A stretch of DNA of 29,731 bases from a virus, in UHGV virus genome UHGV-2199876. One strand, 5' to 3'. The translations under genes were made by a program, and so were the position numbers. Shown piece after piece: positions 3,680-29,731 of the stretch. The first letter of the stretch is position 1. Each line of letters begins with the position of its first letter. The notes under the pieces were generated by a model. It had not been told where the DNA came from and searched no databases. It saw only the letters and a list, made by a program, of their open reading frames with translations.

Positions 3680-4720
3680 ATGGCTACATCGACAGTAATT
3701 CCTGATGACATCAAAACGCTAAAATCCGACGTTAGCAAATTAAAAAACGATCAAGGAAGCTACGCAACAAAATCATATGTAGACAGCAAAGATGAAACCG
3801 TTGGTGACTGGTCTGCTTCATGGTATCAGCAGGTATTGCCAACTAGCGGAGCTATATTTGGGAGAAAACTCCGCTCAACTCACAGGACGGCAGGTGTTGA
3901 GGATGCGTATTGCGAACTATATCTCAAAAAATGGATAGACAGTCCAGGTAACGCAATGGCGCGCCTTAACCTGAACGATAACGGGAAAAACATTTGCTGG
4001 GACTTTACCAACCTTTATGGCGGTACGATGATTTTTCCCGGTGACAGCGGATACCTCAAAATGGGTAACTGCCTTATGTCATACAGCAAACGTGGAAGTA
4101 ACGCGCTTATTAAATTTGATTACACCGACACATTACAGATCAAATATGCTAATCATGGGTCAACCATGACATTAACCACACAGGGATCCGCTCACGCTGG
4201 CGTAACAACTAGACTATGGGGTAATTCTAGCCGTCCGGTTGTTTATGAAGTTGGCGTAGATGAGGCTCTGTATATGTTCTACGCACAGAAAACTACCAGC
4301 AATACCTACGAATTAACGGTTAACGGCGCGTGCAATGCAAGTGCATTTAATCAAGGCTCTGACCGGGATCTGAAAGACAATATTCAGGTGATCGATAATG
4401 CAACCGACCGCATTCGTAAAATGAACGGCTATACATACACGCTTAAAGAAAACGGTATGCCTTACGCTGGTGTTATTGCACAAGAAACCCTGGAAGCCAT
4501 CCCCGAAGCCGTAGGGTCTATGATGAAATATCCAGACGGCGGGAGTGGATTAGATGGAGAAGAAGGTGAACGGTATTACACAGTAGATTATTCTGGTGTT
4601 ACTGGCTTGCTTGTTCAGGTAGCCAGAGAGTCGGACGACAGAATAACAGCACTGGAAGAAGAAAACGCAGAATTAAGACAAAGATTATCTGCAATTGAGG
4701 CGGCGCTTGCGTCTAAATAA
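3680..4720 (+). CDS. Tail fibre / tailspike protein with C-terminal intramolecular chaperone (peptidase S74-like) domain
   Basis: 346-aa ORF containing GSDRDLKDNIQVIDNATDRIRKMNGYTYTLKENG...GVIAQE, which matches the S-D-x-x-L-K-x-N-I autoproteolytic chaperone motif of T5 L-shaped fibre and endosialidase-type proteins. C-terminal coiled coil. Confidence 0.7.
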   Translation: MATSTVIPDDIKTLKSDVSKLKNDQGSYATKSYVDSKDETVGDWSASWYQQVLPTSGAIFGRKLRSTHRTAGVEDAYCELYLKKWIDSPGNAMARLNLNDNGKNICWDFTNLYGGTMIFPGDSGYLKMGNCLMSYSKRGSNALIKFDYTDTLQIKYANHGSTMTLTTQGSAHAGVTTRLWGNSSRPVVYEVGVDEALYMFYAQKTTSNTYELTVNGACNASAFNQGSDRDLKDNIQVIDNATDRIRKMNGYTYTLKENGMPYAGVIAQETLEAIPEAVGSMMKYPDGGSGLDGEEGERYYTVDYSGVTGLLVQVARESDDRITALEEENAELRQRLSAIEAALASK

Positions 4721-4726
4721 TATTAA

Positions 4727-4749
4727 GGGGCCGAGCGCCCCGTTTTATT
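4727..4749 (+). terminator. Rho-independent terminator candidate
   Basis: GGGGC-cgagc-GCCCC hairpin followed by GTTTTATT after the fibre gene. Confidence 0.5.
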
Positions 4750-4756
4750 GGGTAGG

Positions 4757-5050
4757 ATGAAAATGGATATAACACCTTTCCTTCATGCACTTTGTGCTGT
4801 GGCTGCGCAGCTACTGATTGGTCTTTTTACCGGGAACTGGGCTTACGGGGCGATAGCCGGTTGTACGTTCTTCATTGCGCGTGAACACACCCAGGCAGAA
4901 TATCGCTGGATTGAAATGTTCGGGCATGGCAAGCGTATGAATATGCCGTGGTGGGGCGGTTTTGATCCGCGCGCTTGGGATGTAGCAAGCCTGATGGATT
5001 TTGCTGTGCCGGTGGTGGCGTGTTTACTTGTATTTATATTTTTTGAATAA
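4757..5050 (+). CDS. Small hydrophobic membrane protein of unknown function (possible lysogenic-conversion or exclusion gene)
   Basis: About 97 aa with two hydrophobic segments (FLHALCAVAAQLLIGLF and FAVPVVACLLVFIFF). Follows the tail fibre genes and converges on sopB. Start is ambiguous between TTG 4748, ATG 4757 and ATG 4763. Confidence 0.4.
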   Translation: MKMDITPFLHALCAVAAQLLIGLFTGNWAYGAIAGCTFFIAREHTQAEYRWIEMFGHGKRMNMPWWGGFDPRAWDVASLMDFAVPVVACLLVFIFFE

Positions 5051-5055
5051 AATTA

Positions 5056-5082
5056 AGACCCCATCTATAACTGATGGGGTCT
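5056..5082. terminator. Bidirectional terminator hairpin between convergent genes
   Basis: AGACCCCATC-tataact-GATGGGGTCT 10-bp stem with T-rich flanks, between the membrane-protein ORF (+) and sopB (-). Confidence 0.6.
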
Positions 5083-5098
5083 ATTCTATTTTCTGCTA

Positions 5099-6088
5099 TT
5101 AGTTATTTTTTACATCGGAAGAATTTCCAAACGCCTCCTCAAGAATAGATTCAATTTTACTCATTAGGTGCGATGGTATTTTTCTGTTATCTAATTTTAA
5201 TGTTGTGAAATTTTTCCCATATTTCGCCACAACACCGTCTCCATATTTCTTTTCCCTTTTCTCTCCATGTGAATTGTTTTTCTCAACAATAATGAAATCA
5301 TGAAGAGCCTGTATTATTCTTTGCGCATCTAAACTTTCACCTGATTTTTTCATCCTCAGCAACTGAGATGCAGCATTTTTCATGGCTGCTTCCTGTCCCT
5401 GATATGCTTTAAAAAGAGCGTCTCCTGCTCTGGCTGATAACTCACCAGGATGGTTAAATATTGCCAATATATCTTTAGGTAAACCGGCTGTATTAATACA
5501 TCGGCTGATAATATTTCTATCCACGCCTTCGGCTTCAGCTAAAGATTTTACGTTACCGTCAAATTCATGGAGCCTTCGCAGGTATCTTTTCCCCCTTTCA
5601 TAGGCGCTGATAGGTCTATAGTCGTTGCCTATCTGCGATAACCATTGCATTTGTTCATCATCTAAATCGCCAATAAGAACACGATAATCGCATCCAGTTA
5701 TAATGGCTGCTTTACGTCTTCGAGAACCATCAGCTACTTCAACAATACCTGACACTTTTCTTGCGAAAGCCGGATTTTGTTGCCCAGAAGTTAGAAAAGA
5801 TGGAATTAAATCAGCTAGAGAAGATTCATTTAATAAATCTTGATCACGCTCATTACCTAGCCATACCATTGTTGCCATTTCTACTTTATCTGCGGGGATC
5901 GTCTCTAACTTAAAGTTAACATTACGTCCGCATACTGGCAAAGTTATGCTATTACCGGTTAATGAACTCAGTTGACGTTTTAAATCACCAACCATAGGTG
6001 ATACCGGCTGATGTTCAGGTGCATGATGATTATTACTCATAATGCGATTAATATCCGGAGCATTTTTTAGAAGAGAGCGTTGTTTCAT
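5099..6088 (-). CDS. sopB: Partition protein SopB (ParB family, centromere-binding)
   Basis: 329-aa ORF immediately downstream of, and overlapping, the sopA ORF. Resembles F SopB as I remember it. Contains a ParB-like segment (RKAAIITGCDYRVLIGD). Confidence 0.85.
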   Translation of the reverse strand: MKQRSLLKNAPDINRIMSNNHHAPEHQPVSPMVGDLKRQLSSLTGNSITLPVCGRNVNFKLETIPADKVEMATMVWLGNERDQDLLNESSLADLIPSFLTSGQQNPAFARKVSGIVEVADGSRRRKAAIITGCDYRVLIGDLDDEQMQWLSQIGNDYRPISAYERGKRYLRRLHEFDGNVKSLAEAEGVDRNIISRCINTAGLPKDILAIFNHPGELSARAGDALFKAYQGQEAAMKNAASQLLRMKKSGESLDAQRIIQALHDFIIVEKNNSHGEKREKKYGDGVVAKYGKNFTTLKLDNRKIPSHLMSKIESILEEAFGNSSDVKNN

Positions 6089-7254
6089 TCTTCGTTCTCC
6101 CAGCGAGGTTTTATTAGATCATCAAAAATTTCTCGACAAACAGGGTCCCATATAGAGACGGCATTTCTCCATGCATTAAGTGTTGAACGCTGGTTTGCCG
6201 CTTGTTCAAATACTGTTCGCATTTTTATCTGACCTTTACCTACTTCATCGGTAACGCGTACAACCTGACGTAATACCATTGATCCCCATGTATTTCTTAT
6301 TTGCTCTTCCATCCATCGTGATTGATTTCCTGTAGTGAGACTATATTTAGTCAGAAGCAAGCGAACGGTCGGCTCAAATCCGCCTAGGTCAACGCTTTCT
6401 AGGAGATCGAGAAGCATTGTGAAAAACTGTAGAACAGAGGCGTAATCAAATAATTCTGCAGGGGTAGCAACAACGATAACGTCAGCTGCGCAAACAACGT
6501 TAATGGTTCCTGTACCGAGGTTTGGAGCACTATCTATAACGATAACATCGTAGTTATCCCAAACTGATTCTATAGCTGCGCGTAGCATCAGGTGAGGAGG
6601 GTGAGGCAATTTACCCTGAGCATGATATTGCATGAGATCTGTTTCTATACGGTGTAAAGCTAGGCAGCTAGGAATAATGTCCAGTCCAGGCCAGCATGTT
6701 GGTTTTATAGCATATTCAGCGTTATCGCGTTCGCCCAAGTAAAATGGCAGTAAAGTATCCTCGGCATGTATATGTAAATCAGGTACATAACCGTGATACA
6801 TGGAGGCTGTTCCCTGAGGATCGTTACCTTCAACTAAAAGAACACGATGACCTTGTAATGCTAGCCATTGTGCCTGATGTACTGCAGACGATGTTTTATA
6901 AACGCCGCCTTTGTGTGACATAACAGCAAGCACAACTGGGTTTTTATCTTGTGGCCGTTGGTTTGGGTTGCCAAAAACAGCTCGCATACTATTGATTTGA
7001 TCTATGGTATAACCGGCACGACGTTCAACTCTTCCTCTCATTTCAAAGTCAGGTGCAGGTAAACGCCCGTTCTTCTCAGCATCTCTTATTGCTTGAGGAG
7101 TTACACCAATTAAATCTGCTACTTCAGTTATCCCCCATCTACGCGTGATACGCCGAGCTTCAGGACTATCATCACCGAATTGAGCTATAGCAATTGCTTG
7201 GGTCATTTCTTGACCGCGCGTAACACAATCTTGTAATAACTTTTTCAAAGACAT
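6085..7254 (-). CDS. sopA: Partition ATPase SopA (ParA family, Walker-type)
   Basis: 389-aa ORF with the deviant Walker A KGGVYKTS and long stretches matching F SopA as I remember it (QGTASMYHGYVPDLHIHAEDTLLPFYLGE, IKPTCWPGLDIIPSCLALHRIET). Confidence 0.9.
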   Translation of the reverse strand: MSLKKLLQDCVTRGQEMTQAIAIAQFGDDSPEARRITRRWGITEVADLIGVTPQAIRDAEKNGRLPAPDFEMRGRVERRAGYTIDQINSMRAVFGNPNQRPQDKNPVVLAVMSHKGGVYKTSSAVHQAQWLALQGHRVLLVEGNDPQGTASMYHGYVPDLHIHAEDTLLPFYLGERDNAEYAIKPTCWPGLDIIPSCLALHRIETDLMQYHAQGKLPHPPHLMLRAAIESVWDNYDVIVIDSAPNLGTGTINVVCAADVIVVATPAELFDYASVLQFFTMLLDLLESVDLGGFEPTVRLLLTKYSLTTGNQSRWMEEQIRNTWGSMVLRQVVRVTDEVGKGQIKMRTVFEQAANQRSTLNAWRNAVSIWDPVCREIFDDLIKPRWENEE

Positions 7255-7539: not shown

Positions 7540-7875
7540 CAAAAGAACACAATCAAAGATCGTAAAACAACAATAATAATTCACACAAAATAAAGAACAC
7601 AAATACAGAAAACAACAACACAATAAAAACAAGAGAACACAAGCTATAAATATTACACCAATAGAGAACACTAATCAAGAACATATCAGCACATAATTCC
7701 CCATTATACGCGCGTATAATGGGGAATTATGTGCTGATTTTCAGAACAAAGTCAAGGAACAAATTTTAATGTTCCGATATTGTGTTTTTATTTATTATCC
7801 GTTATTGTGTTATGTTAATTTGTGACTAAGTTAACGCGTTATTAGTTATCTTATTCTCAAATTGTGTTACGATAA
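7540..7875. other. tos-like region: telomere-resolution palindrome flanked by inverted AACACAA / TTGTGTT repeats
   Basis: Left of the palindrome: AGAACACAA at 7544, 7594, 7634, with 7665 and 7678 as variants. Right of it: ATTGTGTT at 7779, 7804, 7862. The two sets are in inverted orientation around 7685-7738. Confidence 0.7.
7685..7738. other. telRL-like telomere resolution site (54-bp perfect palindrome with a central CGCGCG)
   Basis: atcagcacataattccccattatacgcg | cgcgtataatggggaattatgtgctgat checked base by base: perfect dyad over 54 bp. Closely resembles the N15 telRL/telO palindrome as I remember it (TATCAGCACACAATTGCCCATTATACGCGCGTATAATGG...). Sits just upstream of telN. Confidence 0.85.
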
Positions 7876-7902: not shown

Positions 7903-9816
7903 ATGAGCAAAGTAAAAATCGGTGAATTAATAAACTCACTTGTTAGCGATGTTGAGTCAATAGATAACTCTGACCGTCCTCAAGGGGAGAAAACAAAAAA
8001 AATAAAGGCTGTTGCATTAAAATTTAAAAATGCATTATTTAATGACAAGCGAAAGTTTAGGGGTAAAGGATTAGAAAAAAGAATTACAGCCAACACATTC
8101 AATGCCTATATGAGCAGGGCCAGAAAACGGTTTGATGATAAACTTCATCATAGCTTTGAAAAAAATATACATCGCCTATCTGAAAAGTATCCTTTATATA
8201 ATGAGGAGCTATTATCATGGCTTTCTCTACCTGCTGCCGATATTCGCCAGAGAATGTCAGCTTTACAGGCAAAATTAAAATTAATTCTCCCTCTATCAGA
8301 AGATTTATCTAATATCAGAATTGGCGATAACAAAAATCATAATAAGTTATTAAAATTATCAAATAAATATAAAGAGTGGCAATTCGCCATTTCTGATTTA
8401 ACTAGCGATAACTGGAAAGATAAGCGCGATTATTTATATAAATTACTACAGCAAGGATCTGCCTTACTTGAGGAGTTGAATCAGCTAAAAGTTAACCATG
8501 AGATTCTCTATCATCTTCAACTAAGCCCTGCCGAACGCGCATCTATCCAGCAACGATGGGCGGACGTTCTGCACAATAAGAAACGTAACGTGGTGGTCAT
8601 TGATTACCCCAAATATATGCAAGCTATTTACGATATTATAAATAGCCCTGCTACATTAAATAATCTAAACACTCGTTCAGGTATGGCTCCTTTGGCATTT
8701 GCACTTGCTGCATTGTCAGGAAGACGAATGATTGAGATTATGTATCAAGGTACATTTACTGTTTCTGGTAAGTATACCGTTGATTTTTTAGGCCAAGCAA
8801 AAAAAAGAACTTCTGATGATATAACCAGAAAAATATATACATTATGCGAAGCAAAAACATTTGTTTATTTAATAAATGTACTTCGCTCATGCCCAGCAGC
8901 ATCTGATTTTGATGATGTCGTTAAAGGTTATGGAGATAACGACACACGCTCTGAAAACGGACGGATTAATGCCATATTAGCAAAGGCTTTTAACCCGTGG
9001 GTTAAATCATTTTTCAAAGATGACCGCCGTGTTTATAAAGATAGTCGTGCTATTTATGCCCGTATTGCGTATGAAATGTTTTTCCGCGTAGATCCTCGTT
9101 GGAAAAACGTAGATGAGGATGTTTTCTTTATGGAAATTTTAGGCCATGACGATGAAAACACTCAATTACACTATAAGCAATTCAAGCTGGCCAACTTCTC
9201 AAAGACATGGAGGCCAAATACTGGAAACGAAAATACCAGGCTGGAAGCATTGCAGCAGCTTGATGACGAAATGCCAGGATTCGCCAGAGGAGATGCCGGA
9301 GTTCGTCTGCATAACACAGTTAAGCAGCTGGTAGAGCAGGACCCCTCTATAAAAATCACGAACAGCACTCTAAGAGCATTCAAATTTAGCCCTACAATGA
9401 TTAGTCGATACCTAGAATTTGCTGCTGATGCTCTGGGGCAATTTGTTGGCGAAAATGGACAATGGCAGCTGAAAATAGATTCTCCAGAAATCGTTATGCC
9501 TGACGAAGAAGAGCTGGAAGCAATACCTGAACAGACGGATGAATTATCAGAGGATGACGATCTGGATGACGACGAAATTGAGATAGAGATAGAGGAAGAG
9601 GAAGAGGAAGAGGAAGAGGAAGAGAGCGTAGAAGAACAGCAACCGCCCGCGCCTTCTTCACCTGTATCTAAGCCGGTATTTAAGCCTGTGAGAAATATTG
9701 GTGATGGATCATACGTTGTTGAATTTCATTATAATGGCCAGAATTATGCTTGGTCCGGCAGTGCAAACAGCCCTATATCAGCAATGCAGTTAGCATGGCT
9801 GACATATTTCGGATAA
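7903..9816 (+). CDS. telN: Protelomerase (telomere resolvase) TelN
   Basis: 637-aa ORF closely matching N15 TelN as I remember it (MSKVKIGELIN..., RITANTFNAYMSRARKRFDDKLHHSF, VVVIDYP, GRINAILAKAFNPWVKSFF). Acidic C-terminal tract. SD GGAGAGG upstream. Confidence 0.93.
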   Translation: MSKVKIGELINSLVSDVESIDNSDRPQGEKTKKIKAVALKFKNALFNDKRKFRGKGLEKRITANTFNAYMSRARKRFDDKLHHSFEKNIHRLSEKYPLYNEELLSWLSLPAADIRQRMSALQAKLKLILPLSEDLSNIRIGDNKNHNKLLKLSNKYKEWQFAISDLTSDNWKDKRDYLYKLLQQGSALLEELNQLKVNHEILYHLQLSPAERASIQQRWADVLHNKKRNVVVIDYPKYMQAIYDIINSPATLNNLNTRSGMAPLAFALAALSGRRMIEIMYQGTFTVSGKYTVDFLGQAKKRTSDDITRKIYTLCEAKTFVYLINVLRSCPAASDFDDVVKGYGDNDTRSENGRINAILAKAFNPWVKSFFKDDRRVYKDSRAIYARIAYEMFFRVDPRWKNVDEDVFFMEILGHDDENTQLHYKQFKLANFSKTWRPNTGNENTRLEALQQLDDEMPGFARGDAGVRLHNTVKQLVEQDPSIKITNSTLRAFKFSPTMISRYLEFAADALGQFVGENGQWQLKIDSPEIVMPDEEELEAIPEQTDELSEDDDLDDDEIEIEIEEEEEEEEEEESVEEQQPPAPSSPVSKPVFKPVRNIGDGSYVVEFHYNGQNYAWSGSANSPISAMQLAWLTYFG

Positions 9817-15000: not shown

Positions 15001-16021
15001 TCCCTTTTCCTTCTGTGGCTGATTTCCGGTCATTATCCAGTGCGCAGGTGATTTTTGCCGCCGGGTACATGTTTACCAGTTGTTCCACAACATGAACCAT
15101 GTTATTAGCGGATACAGCGACAACCACAGCGTCAAAGCGTTTATCTTTTTTCGTGGCAAGCCAGATGGATGCACCAGTAGCAAAACCTTCTGTAACAGCG
15201 ATGTTTTGCGCCCCTTTTAGCTCACCGATAACAAAGCAGGCACCGACGAAATCGCCGCTGGTTACGGCGCTGGTCTGGTATTTTCCACCTTGTTTGTCGA
15301 TTCGCTGCCAACCCACAATACGACCATCGTAACGACCGTCCAGGTGAGCCAGAGGGATAGCCATATACGTGGTTGGCCCCCTGCTCCATTTTGCGCTGTC
15401 GTGACTGGTCACGCGACGCACATCACACGAATTAAAAACGTCACGAATACCTTTTTTAATCGCATATGGCCATGAGCCGTCTTCTGCAGGAGCATGTTCC
15501 CACGCGCTGTGGAATGCCAGCCATCCCAGCAAACGTTCATGGTCCATTTGGTTGTTTTTCAGGTCATTAATTCGTTTTTGTTCTTCACGGCGACGACGTG
15601 CTTCGGCCTGACGTTCTATTCTTGCCCGTTCTTCTTCCGGTTGTGCGACCACGGTCGCATTATTCCGTTGTTGCTCACGGCGATATTCAGAAAACAGGAA
15701 GGAGAAACCGCTCCATGAGCCAGCATCGCTGCCTTTATGGACGAAGTTAATGAACGGGTAATCAATCCCTTTGCTGTGTTCCAGCCGGGAGTAAATTTCT
15801 ACGCGTCCTTTGAGGCTCTTTTCGAGAGCTTCTGGAGATGTTTTATTGTATGAAGAGTAACGCTCAACACCCCCGCGAGGGTTGAGTTGGATGTTGTCGG
15901 AACAGGCAGACCAGTTGATACCAGCCATCTGTGCCAGCTCGGTTAGTTCATCCCGTGCTGCTTCAATTAGCGAGAACGGATCGCTGCCAAAGCGATCCGC
16001 ATAGAAATCGTTTAATGTCAT
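12026..16021 (-). CDS. repA: Replication protein RepA (multidomain primase-helicase, N15 RepA / P4 alpha-like)
   Basis: 1331-aa ORF with Walker A (VRAGMGSGKST) in the central helicase region and a primase-like N-terminal part. Size and position match N15 repA. Confidence 0.9.
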   Translation of the reverse strand: MTLNDFYADRFGSDPFSLIEAARDELTELAQMAGINWSACSDNIQLNPRGGVERYSSYNKTSPEALEKSLKGRVEIYSRLEHSKGIDYPFINFVHKGSDAGSWSGFSFLFSEYRREQQRNNATVVAQPEEERARIERQAEARRRREEQKRINDLKNNQMDHERLLGWLAFHSAWEHAPAEDGSWPYAIKKGIRDVFNSCDVRRVTSHDSAKWSRGPTTYMAIPLAHLDGRYDGRIVGWQRIDKQGGKYQTSAVTSGDFVGACFVIGELKGAQNIAVTEGFATGASIWLATKKDKRFDAVVVAVSANNMVHVVEQLVNMYPAAKITCALDNDRKSATEGKGNTGLRTGYEILSKFNDVRCVYPTFEDDPQMECSDFNDLHKLRGLRETARQLFATANRLKTGTDLLSLTLNRLKTIKRDNRRTFAKELLRAVDIGMLTCPVPNSPSDLFNMFCIVLREMGLENIYRATVKDHIARRLNKKCRIAQAPRSFSERITDPNKRPQHITYKRFETSVMTDDVLKYVQSLQGIVIVRAGMGSGKSTGLLRPLMHSSERGISVAHRVSLIGGLWEMMTEGKGVKADILHYQDPGYQEMAPYASKLTICINSIVKNCWQPLMRQHDYFGFDEATQGLRAVLSGRAMENPVAVFNTLIDALARTEQHPIMVDADANDLLVDLAELAMKRREELGLPAWLQIHVIELPVDVRNRETGEPIRVFYTEKDRIMTEVVKAVSDGEKIMLATDSSTFAEDVTATLRMHFPGKKFLCVNQKNKPEPEVEAFTNQPKKMVKKYDGLIYSPSISSGVSIEQKHFDRHFGMFCGEVVPSDAVQMLRRDRTAKEFIIGFDKARAKRETDPQKIERAFAQALLATAGMNGELTDVVFDGDRISMGVANTDFTRMKIKAAAIEASARNDYASNMICIMHSDGYKVSPLATDYAANDIGKDLRKEARDIVWEQTLDLHLNTETPQESEREELLKKRALTLEEQAKLVRWDIENELKLPVEEGTLKFYFDGARDKVRRYETMLLDEVTARRYDREEAAINFTYAYRQAGQWQYFVVTAMTREQADDVFKTKFPGIIDYKVKATPTVEVGARGFYALKSATLRQYFIDCGINPETMTGEATQERLKFARDNLMTAERRDLLNNVLHIGGFMTPKGKPKVPEALFKNICDSLGLKTGKRRGRDGDKRPTLRFVEPESAAFMLDILVQRQKDGLTLKTRKAEKTAIEMDRDLDLNIYMDDKTRSTNEQVQNAPHSVISEALAVLPVAVPESWAMSALSGEELATMSSWSSASIAMTFASLYLTEFMDHLSSNELRRLREYITGNSSCSYEEQGAFYG
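15644..15659. other. sopC-like centromere site (TGCGACC-AC-GGTCGCA) inside repA
   Basis: 16-bp match to the inverted repeat shared by the four other sites. Same 7-2-7 architecture as F sopC (TGGGACC-AC-GGTCCCA). Confidence 0.55.
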
Positions 16022-17883: not shown

Positions 17884-18129
17884 ATGTTCAGGAAACCGTC
17901 GAAGCCGGAATTAAGGTATTCGGGGGTAAGAAATGAATATGTTATCTGGTGTCCAACTTGTGGTTACAGGACACGACCAGATAGTAATAAGCAGTCTGTA
18001 ATTGCCGATTGGTATTTATCAAATCAGCCAGGTAATAAGCATATAGAAAATCTTTGGATTAAGCGTTACTTGGAAATCAGAGAGGGTGCGACCGTGGTCG
18101 CACAAGAAAATGAAAATAACGCCATTTAA
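17884..18129 (+). CDS. Small zinc-finger protein (CPTCG motif; Lar-like?)
   Basis: About 81 aa from ATG 17884 containing WCPTCGYRTRPD. The ORF-track start at 17809 overlaps the upstream gene. Confidence 0.4.
   Translation: MFRKPSKPELRYSGVRNEYVIWCPTCGYRTRPDSNKQSVIADWYLSNQPGNKHIENLWIKRYLEIREGATVVAQENENNAI
18087..18102. other. sopC-like centromere site (TGCGACC-GT-GGTCGCA)
   Basis: Same inverted repeat, at the 3' end of the zinc-finger ORF. Confidence 0.6.
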
Positions 18130-22459: not shown

Positions 22460-22465
22460 AAACTG

Positions 22466-22481
22466 TGCGACCACGGTCGCA
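22466..22481. other. sopC-like centromere site (TGCGACC-AC-GGTCGCA)
   Basis: Inverted repeat immediately after the stop of the 22232 ORF. Confidence 0.6.
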
Positions 22482-22556
22482 CAGCACAAAAACGAAAAAG
22501 CTTGGCAAAATTACGGTTTTTAGTTATTGTTTTGTTAAGTTGGGTTTTTTGTACCC

Positions 22557-22681: not shown

Positions 22682-23803
22682 ATGCGCATCGCCGGGTTAG
22701 CTTACCCAGGCAAAAAAATAATAGCTATGTTCAAAACCACTAATATTCATGGCGCGCAACTCGTTTGCGCAGATTCTCTGCAATTTATCAAAACCATCCC
22801 TGATAACTCGGTCAATTTGATTGCAACAGACCCACCATACTTCGGCGTAAAGGCTAACGCATGGGATAACCAGTGGGATAGCGATGCTGACTTTTTGGGG
22901 TGGATTGATGAATTTTTGGCAGAATTTTGGCGGATATTGGCCCCTAATGGCAGCCTGTATATGTTTACCGGCTCTCGCCTTGCGTCAAAAATTGAATTAT
23001 TAACTCGCGACCGTTTCAATGTTCTGAACCATATCATTTGGGCTAAACCCAGTGGTATGTGGCGCGGTTGTCATAAAGAAAGTTTAAGGGCTTATTTTCC
23101 TGCCACTGAAAGAATATTATTTGCAGAGCATTACGGCGCGTCAGGTTATGCTAAAGGTCAGTCAGGTTATGCTTCAAAATGTGCAGATTTAAGAAAAAAT
23201 ATTTTTTCTCCACTAATTGATGCTTTTTCGCTGGCTCGCCGTCAGTTAGATATATCAGCCGCAGACATTAATTCAGCAACAGGAAAGCAGATGTGTTCGC
23301 ACTGGTTTTCTTATTCGCAGTGGCGGCTTCCATCATTAAGTGATTTTAATAAACTATGCGAATTATTTCGCAGGAAGGCAGATTCACTCGGTGTCCCGTG
23401 TCCATATCCTTTTAATGTTGATTATTCAGAACATGAAAAGCGTTATAGCGATCTGAAATTGCGTTATGAGGAAGTAAAGAAGCAGTATGATGATTTGAAG
23501 GCTCAGTATGAAAATTTGCGCCGCCCATTTCATGTTACTGCTGATGTACCTTATACCGATGTATGGGAGTTTCCTCCTGTGCAATATTATCCTGGCAAGC
23601 ACCCATGTGAAAAACCTGCAGCGATGATGGAACATATTATAAAAAGTAGTTCCCGCCCCGGAGATATCGTTGCCGATTTCTTTATGGGATCAGGCTCTAC
23701 TATTAAAGCCGCGCTGAAGTTAGGTCGTCAGGCAATCGGTATTGAGATTGAGGGTGAACGTTATCTTCAGACAGTTGATGAAGTGAAAAAGTTATTTGAG
23801 TAA
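22682..23803 (+). CDS. Orphan DNA methyltransferase (N6-adenine / N4-cytosine type, DPPY motif)
   Basis: Motif IV IATDPPYFG near the N-terminus and motif I (FxGxG) DIVADFFMGSGSTIKAA near the C-terminus. No adjacent restriction endonuclease. Start may be ATG 22727. Confidence 0.8.
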   Translation: MRIAGLAYPGKKIIAMFKTTNIHGAQLVCADSLQFIKTIPDNSVNLIATDPPYFGVKANAWDNQWDSDADFLGWIDEFLAEFWRILAPNGSLYMFTGSRLASKIELLTRDRFNVLNHIIWAKPSGMWRGCHKESLRAYFPATERILFAEHYGASGYAKGQSGYASKCADLRKNIFSPLIDAFSLARRQLDISAADINSATGKQMCSHWFSYSQWRLPSLSDFNKLCELFRRKADSLGVPCPYPFNVDYSEHEKRYSDLKLRYEEVKKQYDDLKAQYENLRRPFHVTADVPYTDVWEFPPVQYYPGKHPCEKPAAMMEHIIKSSSRPGDIVADFFMGSGSTIKAALKLGRQAIGIEIEGERYLQTVDEVKKLFE

Positions 23804-23898: not shown

Positions 23899-24171
23899 AT
23901 GAAGATGGATGAACGATACAGCAGCGCATCTTATGGTAGTGCTGGTCTTACTGCGTTCTTTGCCAGCCTGTCATTGCAGGATTGGGGCTTCATTATCGGT
24001 GTCGCGTTCAGCATTATCCTCGGTGTACTTACATACCGGCTCAATAAACGCGAGCAGATGAAGCGCACGAAGATATTGCAGGACATATTGGATAAAACTG
24101 ATGCCAATAATATTTCCGCCACGGCGATGGTTATTGGTGAATTGGGAAAGAGAGCACCGAAGGAAATATGA
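23899..24171 (+). CDS. Class II holin (pinholin-like, two TM segments, dual-start MKM)
   Basis: 90 aa with two TM segments ([11 protein letters not shown] and [18 protein letters not shown]), like S21-type pinholins. Met1-Lys2-Met3 dual start. Overlaps the endolysin start. Confidence 0.7.
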
Positions 24172-24668
24172 TGCAGTCATCATTACGCAAAGCTGTCGCA
24201 ACTGCTATTGGTGGCGGGGCTATTGCCATAGCATCTGTGCTCATCTCTGGTCCGAGCGGCAACGATGGTCTGGAAGGTGTGAGACATAACCCCTACAAAG
24301 ACATCGTTGGTGTATGGACTGTATGTTACGGGCATACAGGAAAAGACATTATGCTCGGTAAAACGTATACCGAAGCAGAATGCAAAGCTCTCCTGAATAA
24401 AGACCTTGCTACTGTCGCCAGACAAATTAACCCGTACATCAAAGTCGATATACCGGAAACAACGCGTGGTGCTCTTTACTCGTTCGTTTACAACGTGGGT
24501 GCAGGCAATTTCAGAACATCGACACTTCTTCGCAAAATCAACCAGGGCGATATCAAAGGTGCATGTGATCAACTACGTCGCTGGACATATGCTGGCGGTA
24601 AGCAATGGAAAGGGCTGATGACTCGCCGTGAGATTGAGCGTGAAGTCTGTTTGTGGGGGCAGCAATGA
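24168..24668 (+). CDS. SAR endolysin (T4-lysozyme-like muramidase with N-terminal signal-anchor-release domain)
   Basis: N-terminal Gly/Ala-rich weak TM segment ([18 protein letters not shown]), then an E-x8-D-x5-T catalytic triad pattern ([16 protein letters not shown]). Confidence 0.85.
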
Positions 24669-25132
24669 GCAGAGTAACCGCAATTATCTCCGCACTGGTT
24701 ATCTGCATCATCGTCTGCCTGTCGTGGGCTGTTAATCATTACCGTGATAACGCCATCGCCTACAAAGAACAGCGTGATAAAAAAGTCAGTGAGCTGAAGC
24801 AGGCGACCGCCACCATCGCTGACATGCAGCAGCGTCAGCGTGATGTTGCTGCGCTCGATGCAAAATACACGAAGGAGTTGGCTGATGCGAAAGCTGAAAA
24901 TGATGCTCTTCGGCGCAAGCTTGATAATGGTGGTCGGGTGCTCGTCAAAGGAAAATGCTCTGTGCCATCCTCAGCCGAAACCTCCAGCGCCTCCGGCATG
25001 GGCAATGATGCCACCGTCGAACTCTCTCCAGTTGCTGGACGAAACGTTCTCGGTATCCGGGACGGAATCATCAGAGACCAGACAGCACTGAGAACGCTTC
25101 AGGAATACATCAAGACGCAATGCCCGAATTAA
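24653..25132 (+). CDS. Rz: Rz i-spanin
   Basis: The N-terminus [31 protein letters not shown] matches lambda Rz as I remember it. Coiled-coil periplasmic domain. Confidence 0.85.
24885..25091 (+). CDS. Rz1: Rz1 o-spanin (lipoprotein embedded in +1 frame of Rz)
   Basis: [21 protein letters not shown]... has a lipobox (VVGC), then a proline-rich stretch [19 protein letters not shown] upstream. Confidence 0.75.
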
Positions 25133-25173
25133 TCCCTCTGTATCAAAAACGAACTCAATTTGTTGGATAGTGA

Positions 25174-25485
25174 ATGAAAATTTATATTGCCGGGCCAATG
25201 ACTGGATATGAGAACTTTAATCGTGACGCCTTTAATAAAGAGGCAGATCGTTTGTCACGACATGGTCACTCTGTCTTGAATCCAGCCACTTTGCCTAATG
25301 GTCTGACACAACGTGAATACATGGATATTTGCTTTGCAATGCTTCGTTGTGCTGATGCTATTTTGATGCTTCCTGGCTGGAAAGCGTCTGCTGGAGCAAC
25401 TGCTGAGTATCATTACGCATACAAGATGGAGATGCCGGTATTCACTACGCTGAATTACCCGCCAGCTTGTTCCTCTGTAGCATAA
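25174..25485 (+). CDS. DUF4406-like / nucleoside 2-deoxyribosyltransferase-fold protein
   Basis: 103 aa starting MKIYIAGPMTG, with ...NPA... and ...LPGW... The family name is from memory of the motif only. Confidence 0.45.
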   Translation: MKIYIAGPMTGYENFNRDAFNKEADRLSRHGHSVLNPATLPNGLTQREYMDICFAMLRCADAILMLPGWKASAGATAEYHYAYKMEMPVFTTLNYPPACSSVA

Positions 25486-25505
25486 AAATCTCTTTGTTTC
25501 TCGTG

Positions 25506-25521
25506 TGCGACCGTGGTCGCA
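25506..25521. other. sopC-like centromere site (TGCGACC-GT-GGTCGCA)
   Basis: Inverted repeat 20 bp after the DUF4406-like stop and just before direct-repeat copy 1. Confidence 0.6.
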
Positions 25522-25532
25522 CATTAAATACC

Positions 25533-25700
25533 GCGCTGCATCGTCGCCGTATTTCCGCATTAACCATGACCGTAGCCCGACGGGGAACTCCTCTGCGCGA
25601 GTGTGCGGAAATAATCAAAAACGATGCACACCGGGTTTTTACCGCGCTAATGATTCGCGGGTTTGTCCCTCATGCTCGCCAGTCCTGTGCGAGGGTGGAA
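25533..25700 (+). repeat. Direct repeat, copy 1 (about 170 bp)
   Basis: About 90% identical to 26473-26645 (gcgctgcatcgtcgccgtatttccgcattaaccatgaccgtagcccgacgggg...). Confidence 0.8.
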
Positions 25701-25725
25701 GAAACAGGGCATGTATTCAGGAGCG

Positions 25726-25741
25726 TGCGACCGTGGTCGCA
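25726..25741. other. sopC-like centromere site (TGCGACC-GT-GGTCGCA)
   Basis: Inverted repeat about 25 bp upstream of the ATG of the 25765 ORF. Confidence 0.6.
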
Positions 25742-25764
25742 CGGTATCTTTGTCAGGAGGTTTT

Positions 25765-26362
25765 GATGAAAGAGTTGCAAAAAATTAATTCAATAATGGA
25801 AAGATTAAGTGCTCTTGAGCGTAAGCTGGACGATTGTGGAAAGCTGTGTGTTGAAAAGCAAAATGAGCTTTACCGGGAATTTTTTACAATCGTAAGTGAG
25901 CTGATGCCAATTGTTAATAACTGCCTGATGACATCCAGATTTTTTAATGTCGATGCTACTACATCCAGAAAATTTTCTGTGAAAATTCAAGAAAGAGTTT
26001 CTGGTAGTGTGACAAGAGAGATGGCTGAACAGTTGGTGGCAATGAGCAATAAAACAAAAAGAAAAAAGGCATTGCTTGTAACAGCAAATCAGCTTTCAGG
26101 GCGCGTTGACTTTCAGGTCAGACAGGGTGGGCGTGTACTGGTAAATGATGCGTTCGTTGGACGTAGCTTTAGTCCTTACTCGATAAAATATGATGTTGAT
26201 GCAGATGATCAGGATATCAGCATTTCCTGGAAATCTGAGACAGCAGGGATTGTATTAACAGCAGAGTTGTTGAGTGATGATAAAAATGATGTCCAGCATC
26301 ATTTGGACGAAAAGAATCATATTTCTGAAATTTGTATGAAGCCACGCAGCATCACTAATTAA
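25765..26362 (+). CDS. Hypothetical AT-rich moron protein (199 aa)
   Basis: ORF with a CAGGAGG SD at 25754-25760. Visibly more AT-rich than its surroundings. Bracketed by the two direct-repeat copies. The ORF-track N-terminal extension (from 25505) is not credible. Confidence 0.45.
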
Positions 26363-26472
26363 ATAGTCCATTACAAAAGCCATTCGCTACTGAGTGGCTT
26401 TGATAATGGCTTATACCCTGCACGGGATAACTTAACTGATATCCCTTTTAACGGATAAAGGTATTCAAGCCT

Positions 26473-26645
26473 GACACATCATGCGCTGCATCGTCGCCGT
26501 ATTTCCGCATTAACCATGACCGTAGCCCGACGGGGAATTCCTTCTGCGCGAGTGTGCGGAAATAATCAAAAACGATGCACACCGGGTTTTTACCGCGTTT
26601 ATGGTGCGCGGTTTTGTCCCTCATAGTCGCCCGTCCGGTGCGATG
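26473..26645 (+). repeat. Direct repeat, copy 2 (about 170 bp), immediately upstream of cos
   Basis: Paired with 25533-25700. Confidence 0.8.
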
Positions 26646-26724
26646 GTGGAAGAAGCTGGATATTAATGCAAGTGATAATTATTCTCACCTTTGCGGGTCC
26701 TTTCCGGCGATCCGGCAGGCTACG

Positions 26725-26736
26725 GGGCGGAAGGCG
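26725..26736. other. cosN candidate (12-nt cohesive-end segment GGGCGGAAGGCG)
   Basis: The flanking sequence tacg | 12-mer | CGCGGGTTTTCGCTATTTATGAAAATTTTCCGG aligns with the lambda left end as I remember it (GGGCGGCGACCT-CGCGGGTTTTCGC...). It lies 189 bp upstream of the nu1 ATG, as in lambda. Confidence 0.6.
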
Positions 26737-26769
26737 CGCGGGTTTTCGCTATTTATGAAAATTTTCCGG

Positions 26770-26895
26770 TTTAAGGCGTTTCCGTTCTTCTTCTCCGTAA
26801 CTTAATGTTTTTATTTAAAACACCCCCTGAAAAGAAAGGAAACGACAGGTGCTGAAAACAGGCCTTTTGGCCTCTGTCGTTTCCTTTCTCTGTTT
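26770..26895. promoter_or_regulatory. cosB-like terminase-binding region (R3 / R2 / R1-like elements)
   Basis: GGCGTTTCCGTTCTTCTTC, AAGGAAACGACAGGTGCTG and CTGTCGTTTCCTTTCTCTG match the lambda cosB R elements as I remember them. Confidence 0.55.
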
Positions 26896-26913
26896 TTGTC
26901 CGTGGAATGAACA

Positions 26914-27433
26914 ATGGAAGTCAACAAAAAGCAGCTGGCTGAAATTTTCGGTGCGAGTATCCGTACCATTCAGAACTGGCAGGAGCAGGGAATGCCCGTT
27001 CTGCGAGGCGGTGGAAAGGGTAATGAGGTGCTTTATGACTCTGCCGCCGTCATAAAATGGTATGCCGAAAGGGATGCTGAAATTGAGAACGAAAAGCTGC
27101 GCCGGGAGGTTGAAGAATTACGGCTGGCCAGCGAGGCAGATCTTCACCCCGGAACACTTGAATTTGAGCGCCATCGCCTGACTCGTGCTCAGGCGACGGC
27201 GCAGGAACTGAAAAATGCCAAAGAATCGGCTGAAGTGGTGGAAACCGCATTCTGTACTTTCGTGCTGTCGCGTATAGCAAGGGAAATATCCAGTATTCTC
27301 GACGGTATTCCTCTGTCGGTGCAGCGACGTTTTCCTGAGCTGGATAACCGGCATATTGATTTCCTGAAACGGGATATCATCAAAGCCATGAACAAAGCAG
27401 CCGCGCTGGATGAACTGATACCGGGGTTGCTGA

Positions 27434-27459
<26 letters not shown>
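26914..27459 (+). CDS. nu1: Terminase small subunit (lambda Nu1-like)
   Basis: 181 aa. MEVNKKQLAEIFGASIRTIQNWQEQGMPVLRGGGKGNEVLYDSAAVIKWYAERDAEIENEKLRREVEEL is close to lambda Nu1 as I remember it. Confidence 0.9.

Positions 27460-29731
<2,272 letters not shown>

Follow-up and report, generated by a model that had tools for sequence, protein, structure and literature searches.

A variable and probably decaying cargo slot between a doubled centromere site and cos in an N15-like linear plasmid-prophage

A truncated gene ahead of cos

The virus genome UHGV-2199876 (29,731 nucleotides, analyzed over its whole length and called the window here) carries a short variable segment between a gene for a DUF4406 protein and its cos region. 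This segment contains an open reading frame (ORF), two copies of a direct repeat that we name element E (E1 ahead of the ORF and E2 after it), and two copies of an 18-bp palindrome, one on each side of E1. A reading of the same DNA made without database searches (the sequence-only reading) had described the ORF as an AT-rich 'moron' that looked like an insertion by recombination with duplication of cos-proximal sequence, and had predicted that recombination between the repeats could excise it.

The ORF exists as described, although it starts one base later than position 25765, at an ATG at 25766, and encodes 198 rather than 199 amino acids (25766-26362, plus strand); the motif AGGAGG lies 6 nt upstream of the ATG. 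An ORF finder returns 285 amino acids for this frame, which stays open for 87 codons 5' of the ATG, through E1 to a GTG inside the upstream palindrome. The internal ATG has a strong Shine-Dalgarno sequence, and this, with the evidence of the homologues, shows the extension to be spurious. As had been recognized, the ORF lies between the lysis genes and cos, more exactly between Rz plus the DUF4406 gene on one side and cos with Nu1 (26914) on the other, where lambda has bor. Its composition is distinct in that it is AT-rich (38.4% GC compared with 45.8% for the window), yet only moderately unusual, at the 7th percentile (7% of 597-nt windows have an equal or lower value).

Residues 1-195 of the ORF are identical at 195 of 195 positions to the N-terminus of a 286-amino-acid protein of PhiR46_1, which we call g1, and the ORF covers only positions 1-200 of the 291 in the profile phrog_2571. 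In comparison with PhiR46_1, the window lacks 833 bp, and the two blastn segments on either side of the gap overlap by 7 nt. This deletion between two ACGCAGC heptamers truncated g1 and removed nearly all of a second gene, g2: g1 lost its last 91 residues, the intergenic region is gone, and only the final 23 nt of g2 are left. The last three codons of the ORF with its stop are the 3' end of g2, read out of frame. The same 833-bp deletion is found in Escherichia phage YDC107_1, in four plasmids and in two IMG/VR contigs. Other truncations of g1 arose independently. In an Escherichia fergusonii plasmid (locus L007) the gene is cut at nt 353, and on RL465 plasmid III (locus L006) a divergent g1 allele breaks off after about 65 codons; E2 is missing from both. 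A further one, a variant of 219 amino acids (protein P0002), diverges in sequence from about residue 203. The ORF is thus not an intact moron but a truncated remnant of a two-gene cassette, with 195 of 286 residues and an out-of-frame tail. It is most likely a non-functional remnant or pseudogene that would have lost the function of g1.

The g1 family is an Escherichia-only ORFan, without detectable relatives beyond Escherichia N15-like elements. No Pfam or NCBIfam family matches it, and its sole PHROG match is a family of unknown function. A word-indexed search returned 16 clusters, all from Escherichia, and an exhaustive phmmer search of 1.84 billion representatives returned only the protein itself and fragments. 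In its weak AlphaFold2 model (mean predicted local distance difference test score, pLDDT, of 59), the N-terminus seems to be helical, the centre a beta domain and the C-terminus an alpha/beta domain, the last of which is absent from the window allele; searched with Foldseek against PDB and BFVD, this model gave no match with a TM-score above about 0.2. The g2 model (mean pLDDT 66) is helical, and g2 is probably a membrane protein. It occurs in 488 clusters from Escherichia, Salmonella, Cronobacter, Citrobacter, Klebsiella and Pantoea, many on chromosome-sized contigs, none of them named and none with a Pfam domain. Against the PADLOC defence profiles, g1 and g2 gave only marginal matches (E = 0.01-0.05). 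We also considered the ORF as a homologue of N15 gp59, which has the equal position, and rejected it at a BLASTP E-value of 2. Lambdoid phages have a moron slot between Rz and cos, filled by bor in lambda and by gp59 in N15, and the segment shares with it the late-operon position, the variable content and a GC content lower than that of its neighbours. It differs in that the window gene is truncated, has no promoter of its own that we detected, and belongs to an Escherichia-only ORFan family.

Doubled centromere site, direct repeats and the left edge of cos

Over 1.85 kb, the locus and its surroundings are 99.9% identical to YDC107_1, which is classified as Ravinvirus, and 99.3% identical to PhiR46_1, one indel aside. 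Further matches are non-mobilizable Escherichia plasmids of 45-50 kb, and the identities range from 99.4 to 99.9% for YDC107_1 together with plasmids that are linear or 45-50 kb long. Along its whole length, the window is collinear with the phage-plasmid N15 (sopBA, telN, repA, cB, Q, lysis and terminase), with the gene order sopB, sopA, telomere site, telN, repA, cB, cro, Q, methylase, S/R/Rz, cos, Nu1 and A. The window is accordingly an N15-like linear plasmid-prophage (Ravinvirus) with a lambda-like cos. The DUF4406 gene is the final conserved gene ahead of its variable slot (Table 1). The methylase gene (22682-23803), upstream of the lysis cassette, encodes 373 amino acids compared with 284 in N15 gene 52, and at 42% GC is about as AT-rich as the cargo ORF. 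The whole GenBank record of YDC107_1 (CP025712.1) shows telN and right-arm genes duplicated in inverted order, and no sopAB. It looks like an assembly that reads through the hairpin telomere, with an untrustworthy gene order, and as a likely misassembly it was left out of whole-genome site counts.

Table 1. Positions of features in the window (for g2, in the locus extracted from PhiR46_1)
Feature	Position	Strand	Remarks
sopB	5099-6088	-	tblastx 77% identity to N15 gene 27
sopA	6085-7254	-	tblastx 92% identity to N15 gene 28
telN	7903-9816		after sopBA
IR1-equivalent	15643-15660		one mismatch; inside repA region; flanks match N15 IR1 (33479)
IR2-equivalent	18086-18103		flanks match N15 35930
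IR3-equivalent	22465-22482		upstream of methylase gene; syntenic with N15 41124
Rz	24653-25132		upstream of cargo slot
DUF4406 gene	25174-25485	+	homologue of N15 gene 57; Pfam PF14359, E = 3.7e-34; tblastx 84%
IR4a	25505-25522		perfect in window; flanks resemble N15 IR4
E1	25533-25708	+	partial, without Eup; long hairpin at about 25538-25627
IR4b	25725-25742		also terminator-like hairpin just upstream of ORF
ORF	25766-26362	+	truncated g1
833-bp deletion junction	26344-26350		7-bp microhomology ACGCAGC, in both parental junctions
Eup	26368-26482	+	upstream part of module; hairpin 26376-26401 terminator-like in both directions, after the ORF
E2	26483-26659	+	native copy; long hairpin 26488-26578, CGCG hairpin from 26594, 3' hairpin 26633-26661
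cosQ-like heptamer GGGTCCT	26695-26701	+	aligned to lambda and N15 ends; outside E2
Predicted 12-nt cohesive end (cosN) GGGCGGAAGGCG	26725-26736	+	aligns with first 12 bases of lambda GGGCGGCGACCT and of N15 GGGCGGCGTCCG
Nu1	26914-27459	+	terminase small subunit
g2	4651-5100		149 amino acids, phrog_3054; mostly deleted from window

The palindrome GTGCGACCGTGGTCGCAC occurs on either side of E1, the two sites being 220 bp apart, and further copies are found at 15643, 18086 and 22465. A scan of the window gave 10 strand-matches at three or fewer mismatches compared with 0.01 expected by chance. The sites at 25505 and 25725 are exact matches to the 18-bp palindrome GTGCGACC-NN-GGTCGCAC. In the oligonucleotides that rebuild the N15 centromere, IR1 and IR4 have the sequence GTGCGACCACGGTCGCAC (PMC7205306, Table 4), of which the two window sites are the reverse-strand reading. 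The whole N15 genome, scanned in the same way, has four sites (33479, 35930, 41124 and 45561). Their counterparts in the window, in the same order, are 15643, 18086, 22465 and 25505/25725, with similar flanks throughout and shared gene neighbourhoods for the first three. The N15 IR4 is located between gene 58 and gene 59, just ahead of cos, and is the counterpart of the pair around E1. The pair is therefore a doubled IR4 (IR4a and IR4b), and the window holds five sites compared with four in the whole N15 genome.

The dispersed sites IR1 to IR4 of N15 are reportedly binding sites of SopB. The window shares with that system the 18-bp palindrome, the replicon type with sopBA and telN, and the four genomic neighbourhoods; it differs in that its fourth site is doubled around a copy of E, and in many of its relatives the upstream copy of this pair is degenerate. 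Cognate sopA and sopB genes are present on the same replicon, and the palindromes are predicted to bind the phage's own SopB and, judged by sequence and synteny, to serve plasmid partition rather than regulate the ORF. In the F plasmid, sopC is a single locus of tandem 43-bp repeats, each with a 16-bp palindrome, TGGGACCACGGTCCCA. The window sites have the central core GACCACGGTC in common with it, but they are single, dispersed and of the N15 specificity type; the F 16-mer gave only 2-mismatch matches in the window, all at the five dispersed N15-type sites, with no tandem array. The sequence-only reading was thus right in seeing sopC-like sites on both sides of the first repeat, as these equal the experimentally used N15 sites, and the term is correct in kind, the specificity type being that of N15.

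The repeats are two copies of E: E2 is the native copy, contiguous with the sequence upstream of it (Eup), while E1 is partial and lies between the two palindromes. Aligned with a single 1-nt indel, the copies agree at 163 of 177 positions, which supports the presence of repeats but not the coordinates first given for them (25533-25700 and 26473-26645, with the start of the second copy 10 nt too early). The differences are unevenly spread: the first 114 nt hold only 2 of them and the last 63 nt hold 12. Such clustering in the 3' third suggests a different lambdoid donor for the 3' part of E2 together with the cos-proximal sequence.

E2 forms the 3' part of a non-coding module of about 290 bp, Eup plus E (26368-26659). 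In ordinary lambdoid phages such as mEp460 this module is contiguous and lies downstream of Rz, with 92% identity over 287 bp and no gaps. It matches 427 phage records. Of 5426 complete E. coli genomes, 4057 carry it, at 7741 places, with no gene annotated over the full-length module among the RefSeq E. coli matches listed. Among the matches are Stx phages whose terminase module differs, with an HNH endonuclease gene and a small terminase subunit, and which carry the element downstream of the lysis genes and two accessory genes. In the DLP12 prophage of a B strain, it is found between iss/bor and ylcI (2501-2670 of locus L213). Lambda (NC_001416, about 46869-46974) has a diverged core copy with 82% identity between bor and lambdap78, about 1.5 kb upstream of cos, and N15 has no copy of E. 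A 19-mer from E searched in the GTDB species representatives was found essentially only in Escherichia; the other matches were short contigs resembling contamination, or chance matches. The repeat is not specifically cos-proximal sequence, as it is a lambdoid module that also occurs far from a lambda-type cos, for example in the Stx phages.

Window positions 26673-27000 align to the joined lambda ends across cos with 93% identity. The likeness to the cosQ-cosN-cosB region of lambda holds from 26673 through Nu1, including the nicking region, the cosB hairpin region and the heptamer GGGTCCT, which we take to be the core of lambda cosQ. The cohesive end GGGCGGAAGGCG differs from that of lambda, GGGCGGCGACCT, and of N15, GGGCGGCGTCCG, even though the cosQ and cosB flanks are about 93% lambda-like. 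A functional cosQ within the second repeat had been named as something to check; the heptamer lies about 35 nt past the end of E2 (about 26659) and is kept in alleles without E2, so that E2 does not contain cosQ. Loci L006, L007 and L008 and N15 keep ACGGGTCCTTTCC or GCGGGTCCTTTCC while differing immediately upstream, and the deletion and rearrangement alleles agree with N15 from (A/G)CGGGTCCTTTCC onward and differ directly upstream of it. These comparisons place E2 outside cos and the left cos edge a few bases upstream of GGGTCCT at 26695, with the allele series acting as a natural deletion mapping of this edge.

The gene, the repeats and cos together bear on the alternative that an intact AT-rich moron was inserted with duplication of cos-adjacent sequence, that the 198-amino-acid protein is a functional lysogenic-conversion or exclusion factor, and that the second repeat supplies cosQ. 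Such an insertion would account for a slot that varies among relatives, for the repeats flanking the ORF, and for an AT-rich gene with a good Shine-Dalgarno sequence at the place of lambda bor. However, the ORF is a 3'-truncated piece of a two-gene cassette, the repeat is a widespread lambdoid module not tied to cos, the cosQ-like heptamer stands beyond the second repeat and persists without it, and the clustering of E1/E2 differences favors mosaic ancestry over a simple duplication in situ. Being already contradicted on gene intactness and on cosQ, this explanation is improbable.

Alleles of the slot in related plasmids and phages

We classified the interval from the DUF4406 gene to Nu1 in PLSDB plasmids and IMG/VR contigs and distinguished six forms. 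The commonest is a long form (about 17 of 26 PLSDB plasmids; seven complete loci examined) with the order DUF4406-IR-E1-IR-g1-g2-Eup-E2-cos, where IR denotes the palindrome. The second is that of the window and the records with the same deletion, namely the long form minus 833 bp. Larger deletions, which run from inside g1 into the sequence just before cos, define the third (L006 and L007), and a further IR after the second E the fourth (the Shigella sonnei type; L008, L133, L148 and L152). The fifth, found at one locus (L153), has neither E1 nor g1 and reads DUF4406-IR-g2-Eup-E. The sixth has a single E, DUF4406-IR-E-cos (L005, L139, L142, L144 and L150), and measures 478-479 bp from the DUF4406 gene to Nu1 where it is complete.

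Four of the five single-E loci combine the left flank of E1 with the right flank of E2, and their E is a chimera. The switch from E1 to E2 is found at three points: near the 1-nt indel in L144, inside a 54-nt identical stretch in L005, and at the extreme 3' end in L139 and L142. Because the chimeric copies have three distinct switch points, the single-E alleles look like products of separate deletions by homologous recombination between E1 and E2, which would have occurred independently several times in nature. The predicted excision by homologous recombination is thereby borne out by five cargo-free loci, four of them chimeric, and insert-free alleles do exist among relatives of the window. 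Deletion between direct repeats and linker homologies are general concepts of lambdoid comparative genomics. As with the linkers of lambdoid mosaics, a shared sequence of about 175-290 bp at module boundaries serves here as a substrate for homologous exchange and gives natural chimeras. The difference is that both partners are direct repeats in one genome, which leads to cargo deletion instead of module exchange, and that E also has RNA-structure signals.

The segment from the centromere site to cos varies among close relatives. N15 carries gp59 in the slot and other N15-like phages carry other genes; more distant ones have the order DUF4406-(dcm)-IR-other cargo-cos, without E. Since these distant phages carry other cargo in the same place, the slot is ancestral and variable.

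We interpret the locus, with a probability of about four in five, as the variable cargo slot of an N15-like linear plasmid-prophage, placed between its fourth centromere site and its cos and now in decay. The full original cargo, still present in most relatives, would have been g1, g2, and Eup with E, and the 833-bp deletion reduced it to its form in the window. As substrates of homologous recombination, the two copies of E would permit a deletion of IR4b and the cargo that leaves one chimeric E. The locus overall is ordinary phage-plasmid mosaicism with an unusually well documented decay series.

Several points weigh against this interpretation. One single-E locus (L150) is cut and has a different sequence after its E, and a separate origin is possible for it. 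We infer the direction of change, and single-E alleles could in principle be ancestral, against which the three different switch points argue. The truncated ORF retains a strong ribosome-binding site, the N-terminal helices and the central beta domain, and it is unchanged in at least seven records, so a residual function is possible; a crude consensus scan found no plus-strand sigma-70 promoter for it. IR4b is perfect in all alleles that carry it, but IR4a has 1-2 mismatches in 15 of 25 related loci. The upstream copy may for this reason be dispensable, and partition may be unaffected by the second IR4 copy.

E1 may have originated in one insertion event in which E was duplicated, in unequal crossing-over between the palindromes, or in the acquisition of the two copies of E on separate occasions. 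In the Shigella-type alleles, the E-IR junction is identical at both copies of E. In L153 (IMGVR_UViG_2675903352_000005, 4408-4500), the centromere site is directly followed by g2, and its single IR combines the IR4a left flank with a right flank resembling that of IR4b. The arrangement at this locus may predate the addition of g1 and E1, or it may result from a further deletion. The junctions and the flanks of L153 together fit either unequal exchange between palindromes or a tandem duplication with a later internal deletion.

The same alleles could be read as a sign that the palindromes are portable recombination sites, with E1, and in some relatives the whole cargo, moving as IR-bounded cassettes by exchange between them. 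E1 is indeed bounded exactly by two identical 18-bp sites, the g1-g2-Eup-E cargo of the Shigella sonnei type is also followed by an IR with the same junction, and the composite flanks of L153, which lacks E1, would be expected of such an exchange. Yet the simple product of exchange between IR4a and IR4b that still has g1 (DUF4406-IR-g1-g2) was found at none of about 45 loci, RecA-dependent exchange would have only a short homology of 18 bp to work on, we see no dedicated recombinase, and the sites already have a known centromere function. We consider movement by the palindromes unlikely, if slightly less so than the insertion of an intact moron.

Structure and coding potential of element E

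The alignment of E raises the question of a function at the RNA level. RNAalifold predicts the long hairpin and the 3' hairpin of E2 (Table 1) on the plus strand. Among 72 distinct copies of E and 34 pairs, 99.3% of cells are paired compared with 21-63% when the partners are slid, and the covariation score was reached by none of 500 shuffles. Most one-sided changes turn U.G into C.G or G.C into G.U, which is tolerated only on the plus strand and gives mismatches on the minus strand. The 3' hairpin shows a switch from U-A to G-C in 26 copies, the Eup hairpin has three compensated stem versions in the alignment, and in the lambda copy, helix 2 is kept by a double change from U.G to G-C. The fold of the single sequence has a z-score of -3.2 on the plus strand. 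In mEp460, Stx2 phage 1717, Ayreon, DLP12 and lambda, the records inspected, E points the same way as the lysis genes, and it has no coding signal.

These features would suit an RNA element that folds on the plus strand within lambdoid late transcripts (serving, for example, in processing or stability, or as an insulator or small RNA (sRNA) precursor), with the two copies kept because each serves the adjoining transcript. We put this forward tentatively, as a minority possibility that deserves attention. The diversity of E is low, with copies mostly 85-95% identical, essentially confined to Escherichia and drawn from few independent substitution events, and the structure that was scored came from the same alignment. 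E has no Rfam family or literature match, and alleles with one copy, as well as N15 with none, are evidently viable. That Eup plus E (about 290 nt), which is unannotated even in lambda and absent from Rfam, may be an undescribed structured RNA of lambdoid late transcripts is a slightly more doubtful proposal still.

The covariance models of Rfam 15, searched over 24000-27500 at E-values up to 1, gave two chance microRNA matches, both at the cosB hairpin, and a literature search with sequence strings of E found nothing. The known prophage sRNAs AgvB, AsxR, STnc100, Esr41 and IsrG were rejected as identities of E, with no Rfam match to E1 or E2. The Pas sRNAs were rejected also: PasA, PasC and PasD lie beside holin/lysozyme genes and PasB among structural genes, and by inspection the PasB probe is absent from E.

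A coding alternative is offered by a minus-strand ORF of 58 amino acids (26624 to 26448), an annotated coding sequence in PhiR46_1, which would make the repeats a small gene and its frameshifted pseudogene copy. This ORF is open in most of 79 copies, including variants with a different N-terminus, and the Eup hairpin would be a good minus-strand terminator for it. Its ratio of nonsynonymous to synonymous polymorphism (pN/pS) is 0.72 in frame, compared with 0.69 in one off-frame control, and the variable sites per codon position (10/7/6) lack a third-position excess. It has no match in Pfam, PHROG or NCBIfam, no coding sequence is annotated over full-length E among the RefSeq E. coli matches listed, and the wobble pairs favor a plus-strand structure over it. 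On pN/pS, codon-position counts and the lack of family matches we rejected E as a protein gene, and a small gene with a pseudogene copy is the least probable of the explanations considered here.

E is the only part of the locus with wider potential and is potentially new, as a conserved sequence with RNA-structure signals that is unannotated even in lambda. If it does act as an RNA, the doubled SopB sites would put E1 inside the partition complex of the lysogen, which could couple expression to plasmid maintenance. The doubled IR4 is a small variation on the dispersed N15 centromere and could be used to probe the effect of site number and spacing on the assembly of the SopB complex. For annotation, the 'hypothetical protein' of the slot is corrected to a gene fragment and the palindromes to centromere sites. 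The natural series of the full cassette, the microhomology deletion, the larger deletions and the excision with three crossover points shows the gain and loss of phage-plasmid cargo beside cos.

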